Notes under the pieces: model-generated
What the model was told of the DNA's origin: nothing
The model's database searches: none
The model's input: only the letters and a program-made list of their open reading frames with translations
In this document: positions 20,633 through 39,700 of the stretch, in pieces
Position numbering within the stretch: the stretch's first letter is position 1
How the letters are laid out: every line of letters begins with the position of its first letter
Program-made: the position numbers and the translations under genes
From: Eledone cirrhosa
Taxonomy: Eukaryota
Assembly (NCBI GenBank): GCA_964016885.1
Contig: OZ024745.1
Coordinates: forward strand, 61,380,001 to 61,444,000
Length of the DNA: 64,000 nucleotides
Direction of reading: 5' to 3'

Positions 20633-20796
20633 GTGTTTGAATATATATATATATATATATATATATATATATATATATATATATGCTTAATATGCAAATG
20701 AGATTAATCACCTCATTTACACAGACGAGAAATGTATATATTCTCGCCTGTCTTCTAGTCCAGCAGTCGCAAGCGGGGGGTGAGGTGGGGGGTGGG

Positions 20797-20840
20797 ACCG
20801 TCCTGACGAAGGCCAGTTAAGCCTGAAATGCATAGACGGT
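20797..20840 (+). ncRNA. Type I hammerhead ribozyme, complete core
   Basis: ACCGTC-CTGACGA-AGGC cagttaa GCCT-GAAA-TGCA-TA-GACGGT: 6 bp stem I, 4 bp stem II, palindromic ATGCAT stem III. Confidence 0.9.
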
Positions 20841-21407
20841 TGTCCCCCTTGCTTCTGCTGGACATCACCAGAGGGCGCTAGCCCCCCCCCCCCCCCCAGG
20901 TGTTTGCATAGCTACGTCTTCCTAAAACCGTATTTCCTTGGCGATACGAAATATTTATACATATATATATATATATATATATATACACACACACACACAC
21001 ACACTCACACACTCACATACACACGCACGCACACACACACACACACACATACATATATATGTGTGCACGTGTATACATATGCATCTTTGAATGTCTGTAT
21101 AGCCTAATGCAAGATTAATTCTTTCGTTATTATTCGTACTTCCTCTCATTCCATTTTCTTTCCTTCTTGTTCTCTTCTCATCCACCCGCCTTCAGCTTCC
21201 CCTTCTTCGCCCCCCCCCCCCCCTCCTCCTCTTCTCCCTCGCCCTTCACCCCCTTCACCCTCCGCCCACTCCTCATTATAATAAATACTGTCATGATCCT
21301 CATTAATAATTATTCTTGTCACTGATTTTACTGTTGTTATCGTTGGGGGGTTGCCGTGCCTAACTGTCGTGCTGTTGTTTTAATGACTACGACCACGACG
21401 ACCATAA

Positions 21408-22048
21408 CGATGATGATGATGATGATGATGGTGATGATGGTAATGATGATGGTGATGATGGTAATGGTGGTGATGATAATGATGGTGATGGTGATGGCGA
21501 TGATGATGATGATGGCGATGATGATGATGATGATGGTGATGGTGATGATGATAATGGTGATGATGATGATGGTGATGATGATGATGATGATGATGGTGAG
21601 GATGATAATGGTGGTGATGATGATGATGGCGATGATGATAATGGTGGTGATGATGATGATGGTGATGGTAATGATGATGATGATAATGATGGTGATGATG
21701 ATAATGGTGGTGATGGTGGTGATGGTAATGATAATGGTGATGCTGATGATGATAATGATGGTGATGGTGATGATGATGGCGATGATGATGATGATGATGG
21801 TGGTGATGGTGATGATAATGGTGGTGATGGTGATGATGATGATGGTGGTGATGATGATGGTGATGGTGATGATGATGATGATCATAATGATGATGATGAT
21901 GATGGTGATGATGATGATGATGGTGATGATGATAATGGTGGTGATGATGATGAGGATGATGATGATGATGATGATGGTGATGAGGATGATGATGGTGATG
22001 ATGATAATGGTGGTGATGATGATGAGGATGATGATGATGATGATGATG
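21408..22048. repeat. Long imperfect (GAT/GGT)n repeat
   Basis: Directly visible; source of the spurious poly-Met/His ORFs. Confidence 0.95.
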
Positions 22049-23164
22049 ACGCGAAAAAGTCGACTGCCGCACGGCTATATGACTCCGTTTTAATGCGCAC
22101 GTTTGCTAGGGCCATCAATCTTCTGTTGGATGCAGTGTACATGACACACACACACACACACACACACACACACACACACACACACACACACACACACACA
22201 CACACACACACACACACACACACACACACACACACACACACACACACACACACCCACTTTCACATATACGTGCATAGCTGCATACATACATGCTTACATA
22301 CAAACACATGCACGCATAAAAACACGTACACACATAGAAAAACATGCACACACTCACATTTACAAACACATACATATGTACAACACACATACTTCTCAAA
22401 ACATACACTTTACATAAACGCATGCACACATTCATACACACATACACAAATATACACATGCAAATATACATATATAAACACATACACACACACACACACA
22501 TGTAAGCACGTATAGCCATATAATTACATAGGCACATATAAACACATATACACATATATAAACATATACAGACATAGAAGCACATGCAAGTATACAATCA
22601 GATACACACATACAATCAGATACACACATGAAAACACATAATACACCCATACAAAAACACACGCACATCCAAACATATACATACACATACACATATATAC
22701 ATACAAACTTACACACATAAACACATGCATATGCACACACACACATGCATGTTTATGTGATGGACCTACATCAGTCTCGACGATGAGTGTTGCATTTGTT
22801 TGAACAACGGAAGAGCCTTGAACTGAAATTAACCTACAAGTGACTGAGCATTCTGTAAATACATGCAACCTTAACGACTGACTCTTTTCATTAAAGGTAC
22901 AAATCCTTTTTACCTGCGGAGTGAACTAGAGCTAGTGAAATATATAGCTCCCTCAAGGACCCAAAGTGCCGCCTGGAATCGAAAGCACTACCTCACGATT
23001 GTGAAAAGAACATACCAACCTCTAAGCTATGCGCCTTCACACATACACACAAACATATACATACATACATCAATACATAAATATATGCATACATAGTAAC
23101 ATATGTACAAACATACATACATTTATATATATATATATATATATATATATATATATATATATAT

Positions 23165-35724: not shown

Positions 35725-36170
35725 AATTGAAAAAGTGGAGAATAACATGGTCAACAATACAAAAAAAGGAGATTTATTTACAGTCTAACAATTGTTTCAC
35801 TGATAGAGTTGTCTAAAAATCCCTAAACACTGAAAGTAGTGCCACTCAATTTAAAATACATGTTATCTCCATCATATTCTCAGTCTCTGAGGATATGAAG
35901 GAGATAACTTGTATGAGTGGCACTACTTTCAGTGTTTAGCGATATTTAGACAACTCTATCAGTGAAACAATTTTTAGACTGTAAATAAATCTCCTTTTTT
36001 GTACTGTTGACCATGTTATTGTCCACTTTTTCAATTTTATTACTCCAAGATAAACTTACATAGGAATACAGTGAAATCATAAACTCGTCATCCACGTAAA
36101 CCTCTTGTTGAGTCATACAACACCGTACGCTAAAACTATTCACAACCTCTAACGATATTTTGTTATCCTC
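35725..36170 (+). mobile_element. Fold-back insert (arms ~35725-35883 / 35887-36037) with HHR at 35881-35981
   Basis: CAGTCT-CTGAGGA-...CTCTATCAGT-GAAA-CAATT(G/T)-TT-AGACTG. Confidence 0.8.
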
Positions 36171-38724
36171 TATATATATGTATATATATATGTATATATA
36201 TATATATATATATATATATATATATATACATATATATATATATATATATATATATATATATATATATATATATATATATATATATATATATATATATATA
36301 TATATATATATATATATACATATATATATATATATATATATATATATATATATATATATACATATATATATATATATATATATATACATATATATATATA
36401 TATATATATATATATATATATATATATATATATATATATATATATATATATATATATATATATATATATATATATACATATATATATATGTATATATATA
36501 TATATATATATATATATATATATATATATATATATATGCATATATATATATGTATATCCATATATATATATATATATATATATATGCATATATATATATA
36601 TATATATATATATATATATATGTATATATATATATATATATATATATATATATATGTATATATATATATATATATATATACATATATATATATATATATA
36701 CATATATATATATATATATATATATGTATATATATATATATATATATATATATATGTATATATATATATGTATATATATATATATGTATATATATATATA
36801 TATATATATATATATATATATATATATATATATATATATATGTATATATATATATGTATATATATATATATGTATATATATATATATATGTATATATATA
36901 TATATGTATATATATATATATGTATATATATATATATGTATATATATATGTATATATATATATACATATGTCAGGTCACCAGTTGGTGCTACTGGTAACA
37001 TGTATCCCAGTACAACCTGTTTCATGGTCGGGTCGTTAGCGACTAAACTGGCAACCCCACCAAGGTTTCTTGGTGAGGAGGGTGACTTTGGACATCCTGC
37101 AGGACTAAAAACAAAACCTGTCAAAGGGCAAAGGAGCTCTTAAGAGTCAATGGCCATCCAAAATCACCGGGAGAGATGACCCCTTAGCCTTTGTCAAGGC
37201 AGAATTCTAGGAGAAGGAAAACTCTGATATAACACCTGCAACCCTGATGGTATCCAATGATGTTGACTTGTTCTACTTTTTGGTAAATATCATCTTGGTT
37301 AAGAGAGTGGGACTGGCTCTGTGCAATGCCTTTGCTCACTATAAAAGCTTCATGGCACAGGCATTGCTTTATATCTGGAGATCTCTCTGCACTTGTCACA
37401 TGGTACCATGGGCCCAGCACTATGTGTCAATAATTGTCACAAGTGTAGTGTTTGTACCAGAGTTTTCAAGTCGCTGGCTGGACTCAAAAGTCACACTCGT
37501 TCAGCGCATCGGTAGGGGTTCTCCTACATGGATATAAAGTAGTGGCCGTACTCGAAAACGAGTTGGCAGCCACCATATATATATATATATATGTATATAT
37601 ATATATATATATATATATATATATATATATATATATATATATATATATATATATATACATATATATATATATACATATATATATATACATATATATATAT
37701 ATATATATATATATATATATATACATATATATATATATATATATATGTATATATATATATATATATGTATATATATATATATATATATATATATATACAT
37801 ATATATATATATATATATATATATACATATATATATATATATATATATATATATATATGCATATATATATATATATATATATATATATGGATATACATAT
37901 ATATATATGCATATATATATATATATATATATATATATATATATATATATATATATATGTATATATATATATATATATATATATACATATATATATATAT
38001 ATATATATGCATATATATATATGTATATCCATATATATATATATATATATATATATGCATATATATATATATATATATATATATATATATATATATGTAT
38101 ATATATATATATATATATATATATGTATATATATATATATATATATATATACATATATATATATATATATACATATATATATATATATATATATGTATAT
38201 ATATATATATATATATATATATATATATGTATATATATATATGTATATATATATATATGTATATATATATGTGTATATATATATACATATATATATGTAT
38301 ATATATATATATGTATATATATATATACATATATATATATGCATATATATATATATATATATATATATATATATATATATGTATATATATATATATATAT
38401 ATACATATATATATATATATATATATATATATATATACATATATATATATATATATATATATATATATATATATATGCATATATATATATATATATATAT
38501 ATATGGATATACATATATATATATGCATATATATATATATATATATATATATATATATATATATACATATATATATATATATGTATATATATATATATAT
38601 ATATATATATATATATATATATATATATATATATATATATATATATATATATATGTATATATCACGATATATATATATATATATATATATATATATATAT
38701 ATATATATATATATATGTATATAT
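36171..38724. repeat. Very long interrupted (TA)n arrays flanking a SINE
   Basis: About 0.8 kb and 1.15 kb of TA with sparse C/G interruptions. Confidence 0.95.
36975..37575 (+). mobile_element. Non-autonomous RTE-related SINE (same family as 13581-14357)
   Basis: Retains ctaggagaaggaaaactctga RTE 5'UTR motif and RTE-type 3' stem-loop. Confidence 0.88.
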
Positions 38725-39218
38725 CACGATAAATTAACGGAGGCATAGGCCGTCGTTATTCCCTGTAAATAATGTGCTCAAAGAGGAAGAGATCCTGAGC
38801 CCTTTAAAATATAATATGTTGAGAAGGTAACACACCAGAGAGAGATATATAGTGCGTTATCAATAATACAGGGAAAAAAACCACCAGTGTATGGAATCTA
38901 TAACCTATGAAAGGCAGACTATAGACACGATAATTAAAAATATAAATTAAAGCGTAAATAAATACCTTTATAACTATATAACACACGTATAAATCCAAAG
39001 ATATGTTTCACCACAAAAGAAACATATCTTTGGATTTGTACGTGTGTTATATAGTTATAGAGGTATTTATTTACGCTTTAATTTATATTTTTAATTATCG
39101 TGTCTATAGTCTGCCTTTCATAGGTTATAGATTCCATACACTGGTGGTTTTTTTCCCTGTATTATTGATAACGCACTATATACCTCTCTCTGGTGTGTTA
39201 CCTTCTCAACATATTATA
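38725..39218 (-). mobile_element. Fold-back insert with ~200 bp arms and 9 nt spacer
   Basis: 38810-39009 is the reverse complement of 39019-39218; TA flanks. Confidence 0.88.
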
Positions 39219-39336
39219 TATATATATATATATATATATATATATATATATATATATATATATATATATATATATATATATATATATATGTATATATATA
39301 TATATATATATATATATATATATATATATATATTTA

Positions 39337-39700
39337 TTAAAGAGTTAAACAAGATTCAATGAGTATATCAAAGAATGAGTTTTATAGTAGATTGGAACCA
39401 CTTTACAGAAAAATAATTTTCAAGAGTTATTAATATTAAAATACAAATATTAATAAAATAGATGTTCTTTTGATCAATTAAATTTTATAATACATATTTC
39501 GGAGGTCCAACAGTACGTCCTCATCAGACAAAATATAATAATACATGACACACCCTGAGATGTTAAATGGTTAAGATTTAATCAAGGTAGTATCATTATA
39601 TTTTGTCTGATGTGGACGTACTGTTGTACCTCCGAAATATGTATTATAAAATTTAATTGATCTAAAGAACATCTATTTTATTAATATTTGTATTTTAATA
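39337..39700 (-). mobile_element. Fold-back insert with an HHR in each arm (39483-39533 minus; 39600-39652 plus)
   Basis: ATTTTGT-CTGATGA-GGA..TCC-GAAA-TATGTA-TT-ATAAAAT; the plus copy has CTGATGT. Confidence 0.85.

Follow-up and report, generated by a model that had tools for sequence, protein, structure and literature searches.

Hammerhead-bearing Penelope-like element ends and their short derivatives in TA repeats of the Eledone cirrhosa genome

What kind of element places a run of hammerhead ribozyme (HHR) motifs within a short piece of the Eledone cirrhosa genome, and how were such elements inserted? The question is raised by a stretch of contig OZ024745.1 (positions 61,380,001 to 61,444,000), here called the window, which covers 64 kb of a 3.0-Gb genome, is AT-rich and is crowded with microsatellites and with short and long interspersed elements (SINEs and LINEs). 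A first-pass annotation of window positions 20683-39700 had described about ten small non-coding HHR retroelements, all lying in (TA)n microsatellites and mobilised in trans by proteins of Penelope-like elements (PLEs). About 14 families (A to N) were found, one of which (family M, 38735-39210) had been overlooked, and the region is probably a nest of independent insertions of PLEs and their short derivatives in TA repeats. The identity of the elements as PLE ends and retrozymes is firmer still, and we regard it as very probably correct. What appears to be new, as far as the open literature tells, is that each family has two fixed 3' ends and that inverted insertions combine one of each.

Motifs of the type I HHR kind were present at, or within about 115 nt of, every site listed earlier. 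A strict scan for such ribozymes (core CUGANGA or UUGANAA; stem I of at least 4 unbroken pairs; domain II of up to 95 nt) returned five matches in 20683-39700 and none in the remaining window, while 100 block-wise dinucleotide shuffles of the region, a control that had been set beforehand, gave a mean of 0.03 matches and a maximum of 1. The scan misses the types represented by families D, E, F, J, K and L and so undercounts HHRs.

Not all of these sites hold an intact ribozyme. Placed by position C3 of the core, the window copies of A (20803, plus strand; predicted cut after 20833), C (23499, plus), D (25104, plus; 4-bp stem I) and N (39527, minus) have intact core and stems, as do both copies of family I (33773, minus, and 34413, plus), which have a U3:A8 core and a 59-nt domain II. 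Three further copies have an intact core and are weak, namely E (25868, plus), in which helix II is closed by a mismatch, K (35149, minus), a minimal HHR with a proximal stem I of only 2 bp, and L (35887, plus), which has a long domain II and is damaged by an 8-nt deletion and an altered loop III relative to the family consensus. The copies of J (34604, plus; 3' strand of stem I deleted), the second copy of N (39607, plus; A9 changed) and the copy of H, split into two half motifs on opposite arms (32896, minus, and 32935, plus), are broken. The 3' halves at 23243, 31585 and 63185 are truncated HHRs, in agreement with the earlier description. Family F is atypical, since the motif at 30596 (minus) is a 3' half only and a canonical core was found near it in none of 14 copies; its best reading places the 5' half at 30710 (minus), about 110 nt upstream, with a U4C core (11 of 13 copies), a domain II of about 100 nt and a 3-bp stem I. 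A motif near 30650 was considered as the 5' core and dropped in favour of 30710. Judged by its sequence, the family F ribozyme is of doubtful activity and may be catalytically dead.

Genomic copies provided a second view of these folds. Eleven families were searched genome-wide, giving, as lower bounds, 2168 DNA candidates for A, 2208 for B, 572 for C, 1312 for E, 2413 for F, 640 for H, 55 for I, 1884 for J, 1706 for L and 794 for N, and 25998 protein candidates for K; D, G and M are known through incidental copies only. Aligned copies restored the full fold in A, B, C, D, E, H, I, J, K, L and N. Among distinct copies the core was intact in 35 of 40 for A, 26 of 30 for C, 10 of 21 for D, 19 of 27 for E, 11 of 13 for H, 18 of 20 for I, 13 of 16 for J, 16 of 21 for K, 18 of 19 for L and 19 of 21 for N, and all five B copies that were long enough have the full fold, with a U3:A8 core and a 5-bp helix III. 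Family M has an intact HHR in one copy (L099), and for family G the 3' half was recovered without its 5' half. In every family the HHR occupies a fixed position upstream of the termini. Stem covariation across copies, also set as a check beforehand, was seen in helix II of the C/N group (32 sequences), where double changes occur at six of eight pairs; they fill 49 cells as compared with 18 in shuffles, none of 500 shuffles reached this figure, and slid controls gave 1-11, although relatedness among the C/N sequences inflates such counts. Helix II is unconstrained by the selecting pattern, whereas stems I and III are partly fixed by it and were not used as covariation evidence.

Could AT-rich, repetitive sequence nevertheless produce such motifs by chance? 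In favour of this, several of the copies in the window are broken, Rfam gave no match in the window at the gathering score, and among the 150 listed of 264 weaker matches, dominated by microRNA models on TA repeats, there was no hammerhead. The folding predictions also count against our reading. The HHR junction comes out as the minimum-energy fold for A, B, D and I, whereas for C, E, K, L and N the copies in the window are predicted to have another ground state, and the z-scores of folding (+1.25 to -2.4) are weak. For the C/N group, RNAalifold favours an inactive structure in which stem I pairs with GAAA. Against the excess over shuffled sequence, the family consensuses that restore the fold, the helix II covariation and the fixed position of the motif, chance is an extremely improbable explanation. 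By family consensus the motifs of A-E, H-L and N are real type I HHRs, as is that of M by its one copy. Helix III is palindromic in many of them, as had been stated, and is suited to dimeric cleavage; by analogy, the HHRs probably process multimeric transcripts, many of them as dimers when their helix III is of this kind. A published study reportedly deals with the cleavage of PLE hammerhead variants as dimers.

The clustering itself turned out to be less exceptional than had been proposed. Twenty random 10-kb stretches of the genome held 10 strict HHR matches as compared with 0.6 in shuffles, a density of about one per 20 kb. With Poisson limits this extrapolates to 0.7-2.8 x 10^5 HHRs in the genome, from a sample that is small and in which large chromosomes weigh more. 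The density in 20683-39700 is five times the random value in a region that was chosen for its HHRs, and the whole window, with five strict HHRs against about three expected, is ordinary; four 10-kb stretches flanking it held 0, 2, 3 and 0. TA arrays occur at 1.1 per kb in the region and 0.84 per kb at random. Their association with HHRs is closer, with (TA)4 or more within 250 nt downstream of 66 of the 78 incidental strict HHRs at all loci (26 clusters, with a few spurious singletons) as compared with 1114 of 4000 random positions, and in the random sample alone TA lies within 131 nt of 7 of 10 strict HHRs. The cluster is a modest hotspot, and such a density is nothing unusual for this genome. 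Other HHR families, not represented in the window, were also encountered (L135:1999-, L143:3181+, L121:6184-/6759+, L137:1071-/3270+), with an 8-nt palindromic helix III and a domain II of 38-54 nt.

What carries the ribozymes? Most carriers had been taken for non-coding elements of 160-600 bp, and they proved to be mostly truncated ends of long coding elements. Seven of the 14 families (B, C, D, F, H, K and L) run into PLE frames and are, on their sequences, 5'-truncated 3' ends of coding PLEs, which upholds the proposed tie to this class; B, C, F, H and L would be Hydra-type and D and K Neptune/Nematis-type. The window copy of K (34903-35715, minus) has an open GIY-YIG end at 35411-35716. 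Elsewhere the frames of K reach 975 aa with reverse transcriptase (RT), a CX4CxxC linker and GIY-YIG at the C-terminus; in L115 a single frame of this length contains a telomerase-like RT, a DKG-type motif, a linker that fits the CX2-5CxxC pattern and, C-terminally, GIY-YIG with CCHH, and protein-atlas neighbours of the family carry RVT_1, HTH_animal and GIY-YIG. The frame in L115 (2618-5542, minus) also has a long asparagine-rich N-terminal stretch, which recalls the N-rich inserts of rotifer Penelope in the available text of PMC3846280. Family D (24600-25363, plus) is a 5'-truncated PLE which ends at its tail in TA and retains a frameshifted GIY-YIG remnant about 50% identical to that of K; further D 3' ends, an inverted pair and a short end piece at 29622-30074, all lie downstream of the HHR. 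A comparison of D and K with printed clade motifs did not separate Neptune from Nematis. A Pfam scan of the PLE proteins gave no match.

Family F (30256-31483, minus) is a Hydra-clade PLE remnant with an endonuclease end at 31095-31340 and, in inverted orientation, a 3' piece at 31340-31483; a SINE interrupts the remnant at about 30379-30558. Its locus L130 shows the Hydra motifs CxCX5C, CxxC before E and CxH after N, with no CCHH, and an RT piece at L129 looks, by eye, similar to the Hydra alignment in print. Naiad was ruled out for both F and K, as their endonuclease is C-terminal. Same-strand matches to the F endonuclease were found 0.9-1.5 kb upstream of the HHR in 2 of 15 loci of B, 1 of 15 of C and 1 of 12 of H (tblastn, 29-39% identity, E 1e-24 to 5e-10), with the endonuclease frame lying 0.9-1.4 kb upstream in L158 and L159 for B and seen in L045 for C and L197 for H. 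In family L a Hydra-type RT end lies upstream in 1 of 15 loci (L079; also L126), a copy in which no endonuclease was found. In this long L copy (L126:4969-5733) the RT end abuts a pyrimidine-rich untranslated part, possibly marking an endonuclease-deleted derivative. The remaining B, C, H and L loci are truncated before the coding point.

In the window these Hydra-type families appear as short 3' ends. Family B occurs at 23164-23368 (minus; tail arm on the minus and site-1 arm on the plus strand) and again, in an identical inverted layout, at 63106-63315 (plus), both insertions being truncated in helix II of the HHR. Family C lies at 23430-23607 (plus), flanked on the 5' side by a short piece of tail in inverted orientation, H at 32815-33125 (plus, inverted, its plus arm beginning within the core) and L at 35721-36150 (plus, inverted). 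Four further families have less to show upstream. Other copies of J (34592-34820, plus) have at least 0.7 kb of common upstream sequence, in which no PLE match was found, and no coding frame lies within reach of the sampled copies of G (31481-31743, minus; a B-related inverted element), M (an inverted element with HHR 3' halves on both arms) or N (39338-39701, minus; an inverted element with an HHR related to that of C).

These data bear on the original proposal, in which some ten small, non-coding ribozyme retroelements, densely clustered and all moved in trans, form a system of their own. Families A, E and I are truly non-coding tandem monomers and so fit that proposal, for J, G, M and N no coding frame was reached, and in B very short insertions predominate. 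The proposal is, however, refuted for B, C, D, F, H, K and L by their continuation into PLE frames, 5' ends vary from copy to copy, and random stretches are similar in HHR density; as a description of the whole region it is unlikely. Movement of small elements in trans may hold for A, E and I.

The non-coding families are of a different build. Their monomers measure 333-339 bp (A), 416-425 bp (E) and 593 bp (I), with a GC content of 36-46%; each runs upstream, head to tail, into its own previous unit, the longest ATG frame is 63-78 aa, and no PLE protein match was found (for A, at 29 loci). In the window, A (20683-20964, plus) is less than one unit, ends at 3' site 1 and has TA on both sides; E (25553-26164, plus) is a direct tandem of 1.45 units; and I (33449-34572, minus) is a young insertion, with 1.3 units on the minus strand running to the tail (33449) and an inverted arm running to site 1 (34572). 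Copies of I are 96-99% identical (55 candidates). At least two consecutive HHR-bearing units were found in other copies than those of the window (A L007, E L057, I L063, the last with three cut sites), and the sequence continues across the predicted cut site in 42 copies of A, 23 of E and 32 of I. Tandem units share private variants at 0.19-0.39 as compared with 0.04-0.05. From their sequences we take A, E and I to be non-LTR retrozymes. They might instead be satellite-like pseudo-LTR (pLTR) remnants amplified by unequal crossover, independently of PLE proteins, as some copies of I do lie in local arrays (around C1:166.38 Mb) and the available text of a 2026 preprint discusses satellite-type local amplification (10.64898/2026.07.22.740005). 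The copies of all three families are, however, dispersed over many chromosomes as 1-2.4 units with fixed TA termini and inverted 5' arms as in the coding families, and a satellite origin is accordingly quite improbable.

Sequencing runs yielded two observations on family I. In four runs of unknown kind, contigs hold its 590-nt end-to-start joint, one of them as a single 621-nt cycle; this was not counted as evidence for circular RNA because tandem DNA explains it equally well. In one run the summed contig depth over 33449-34041 reached hundreds of thousands, over 1578 contigs as compared with the 55 assembly candidates, so the family is possibly far more abundant than the assembly search shows, although depth is not copy number.

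How were these elements inserted? The 3' ends point to TA repeats as the target in most families, adjoining TA in 109 of 114 cases for B, 46 of 48 for C, 24 of 27 for N, 30 of 34 for D, 13 of 14 for J and 15 of 21 for H. The claim that all elements sit in (TA)n does not extend to F (8 of 21) and L (9 of 25), in which AT-rich or (TC)n sequence intervenes. Measured from the predicted cut, the 3' ends pile up at two places per family, at +20 and +99 in B, +58 and +143 in C, +56 and +150 in N, +65 and +202 in L, +59 and +185 in J, +166 and +225 in D, +135 and +176 in A and +80 and +243 in I; the tail end of H sits at an artefactual +129 of the reference. The second site is the first plus a tail of 43-163 nt. 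In the run contigs of family I, TA-joined loose ends at 33452 and 33614 mark the same two places.

The two sites are used in a regular way by inverted insertions. One hundred inverted pairs with a junction gap of up to 80 nt were collected from seven families (B, C, D, H, J, L and N). Eighty combined site 1 with the tail, one combined two tails, none combined two site-1 ends and 19 had an end at neither site, so that 80 of 81 classifiable pairs have one of each. The family B query forced a tail on one arm; without B, the rule holds in 39 of 39 pairs from six families. All 4 pairs of family I conform, as do about 8 of the 13 in A, where no two like ends were paired at the two main ends. Following this PLE end pattern would tie retrozymes A and I directly to PLE machinery. 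In B, C, H, L and N, sharing of private variants between the arms of a pair stands at 0.23-0.42, as compared with 0.03-0.08 between insertions, which indicates a common template for both arms or later conversion. At the other end, 20 of 30 B copies picked by sequence downstream of the cut begin 35-48 nt upstream of it, in helix II, whereas one begins at the cut and one more within 4 nt. A template cut at the HHR was therefore rejected, there being no 5'-end peak at the cut site in B or in other families.

These observations would be accommodated by a model in which a (TA)n tract is nicked on both strands by the GIY-YIG endonuclease and the two 3'-OH ends prime on one RNA, uncleaved (or circular), with a separate site of the two for each. 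The cDNAs would then grow upstream, would often halt at hairpins (HHR helix II in the case of B) and would be joined head to head, longer runs on a tandem or circular template would yield the direct repeats of 1.x units, A, E and I would borrow the PLE machinery in trans, and the inserted template would not be cut at its HHR. Such two-site priming would be expected of a dimeric RT-endonuclease gripping both nicked strands. In its available text, a study of the Poseidon PLE reports that the protein nicks both strands of AT-rich DNA, that RT starts at two adjacent internal RNA sites which define a tail, and that the RNA used is uncleaved, the protein being modelled as a dimer (PMC11167929). That A and I obey the one-of-each pattern favours dual priming on one RNA, and we give this model slightly better than an even chance.

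The main alternative is self-priming, in which the inverted arm arises by fold-back of the cDNA or of an antisense RNA template, as proposed in the available part of PMC3846280, and site 1 by endonuclease resolution, to which the tail has been attributed (PMC8557442). Junction hotspots at hairpins or palindromes (helix II in B; near -125 in H), the variants shared between arms and the AT-rich, target-like sequence around site 1 agree with it. Fold-back of a tail-primed cDNA, however, needs the tail arm to be the longest, and in 26 pairs it is the site-1 arm that extends further upstream, in 15 the tail arm, while the arms of 39 are level, so that site 1 has the longest arm in 26 of 41 unequal pairs; the 11 pairs of N are uninformative as their reference is short. 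The antisense-template version is compatible with these counts. Both sites have, moreover, been mapped as RT starts in vitro (PMC11167929, available text). We regard self-priming as possible, though on the doubtful side.

Several points weigh against dual priming and the wider PLE reading. The 3' ends of family E are scattered and its pairs fit the one-of-each rule poorly; shared variants are absent in D (3 pairs) and J (2 pairs), and where present they can also arise from gene conversion or local duplication after insertion. The two Poseidon start sites were used in vitro with no strand preference in the available text (PMC11167929). The coding link of C, H and L rests on one locus each, the loci are best-scoring copies rather than a random draw, and no sequence link was found between A, E and I and the sampled autonomous families. 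An extension of dual priming is offered only tentatively: every inverted Penelope-type insertion, across Hydra and Neptune/Nematis-type PLEs and retrozymes, might come from two primings on one RNA, A, E and I might be circular RNAs copied by rolling-circle RT, and this genome, whose roughly 10^5 hammerheads may fall into dozens of families, with U3:A8, U4C and long-domain-II variants among them, is perhaps one of the most hammerhead-dense in animals and may make abundant ribozyme circles.

Some smaller features of the region touch on these elements. The tails of B, C, H, I, J, L and N begin, by eye, with a similar short ACTCY, mostly followed by a complementary GAGT or GAGC; the pairing could form a shared protein-binding hairpin and would link retrozyme I to Hydra-type partners. 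Short TA-bounded repeats at 33236-33400 (a near-perfect inverted pair), 32490-32790 and 26185-26330, with copies in L119 and L222, are probably PLE ends truncated below the HHR. At 36171-38724 there are two long (TA)n tracts, both degenerate and measuring about 0.8 and 1.15 kb, which have internal variant patterns in common around a 600-bp repeat; this repeat recurs at 13792-14469.

The remainder of the window contains other repeats. An ORF1-like frame of 362 aa (26916-28004) and an endonuclease-RT frame of 1196 aa (53499-57086), both on the plus strand and with related frames in L127, L128 and L129, are presumably L1/Tx1-like by their motifs. LINE RT remnants lie at 28436-29587 (plus; RVT_1 match at 28436-29584), 4331-5642, 8392-13613 (minus), 42852-46149 (plus) and 46835-50098 (minus), some with long open frames (863 and 1088 aa). 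One SINE is present in many copies (18504-20082, 30379-30558, 42092-42261 and 59577-60264) and is tandem near 59.6-60.3 kb.

The mechanism of tandem and inverted PLE insertion and the role of the HHR are stated open questions (PMC8557442; PMC11167929, in its available text). The families described here offer hundreds to thousands of copies with readable ends, and the one-of-each rule, together with the absence of 5' ends at the cut site, narrows the possible insertion mechanisms. Retrozymes with a PLE end signature support the claim that retrozymes are PLE parasites by a non-phylogenetic route. A consequence for annotation is that PLE ends probably account for many of the short palindromic repeats labelled 'MITE-like' or unknown in such genomes.

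The novelty must be measured against systems already described. HHR-bearing, (TA)n-inserting Hydra PLEs, including Hydra-1_Obim of Octopus bimaculoides, were reported by Craig et al. 2021 (PMC8557442), and minimal HHRs, opposite-strand pairs 100-700 bp apart from truncated PLEs, a U3:A8 core, dimeric processing with a palindromic helix III and 2,000-9,000 HHRs per genome appear in the available text of Cervera and de la Pena 2014 (PMC4209133). The suggestion of a probably unannotated system was therefore overstated. In the open literature, leaving Repbase and Dfam aside, we found no paper on cephalopod hammerheads or retrozymes and no count of the one-of-each rule. The repeat annotation of Octopus vulgaris lists 31 recently active Penelope-like families, and its main text, in the part available, does not contain the words ribozyme or hammerhead (PMC13282606); the families of the window may be in that library under other labels. 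The element classes are already known, which makes the surprise moderate, and families A-N may well be uncurated.

Like the Hydra clade, the Hydra-type families here have a C-terminal GIY-YIG with a CxCX5C linker, CxxC and CxH, insert in (TA)n, carry a type I HHR near the 3' end and show 5' truncation, an inverted 5' arm and a tail at one end. None of the families in the window matches the HHR given for Hydra-1_Obim, which makes them additional families. In contrast to the clade as described (PMC8557442), their tails measure 79-137 nt rather than 30-40 bp, in B, C and H a distance of 0.9-1.4 kb separates the frame from the HHR behind it, domain II extends to 60-100 nt, exceeding any in the clade table, and U3:A8 and U4C cores occur. 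With the PLE pseudo-LTR HHRs of PMC4209133, as far as its available text describes them, they share a short or palindromic helix III, an unpaired base before helix II, a stem I of 2-4 bp (D, K), the U3:A8 variant, opposite-strand pairs and solitary motifs from truncated PLEs; cephalopods are not mentioned in that text, and our estimate of about 10^5 HHRs exceeds its 2,000-9,000.

Animal retrozymes, including those of mussel, were defined by Cervera and de la Pena 2020, who reported up to 120,000 HHRs in axolotl (PMC7229834, available text). They are argued to be non-autonomous PLEs by Li, Clavereau and Pollet 2026 (bioRxiv, 10.64898/2026.07.22.740005), a preprint which, in its available part, does not cover molluscs and defines an active retrozyme by at least two consecutive HHR-bearing units. 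Families A, E and I resemble these elements in being non-coding, with one type I HHR, similar GC content, head-to-tail units and a proposed derivation from PLEs. They differ in being mostly dispersed TA insertions of 1.x units with two fixed termini and inverted arms, a signature unreported in those available texts, in the 593 bp of I as compared with a typical 300 bp, and in being known here from DNA alone. The closest counterpart to the end pattern is Anolis Poseidon (Frangieh et al. 2024, PMC11167929). It belongs to a different PLE clade, and the available text reports that the two sites show no strand preference and gives no count of inverted insertions; the families of Eledone cirrhosa nevertheless share with it two termini downstream of the HHR which define a tail, an AT-rich target and an RNA template that is apparently left uncleaved.

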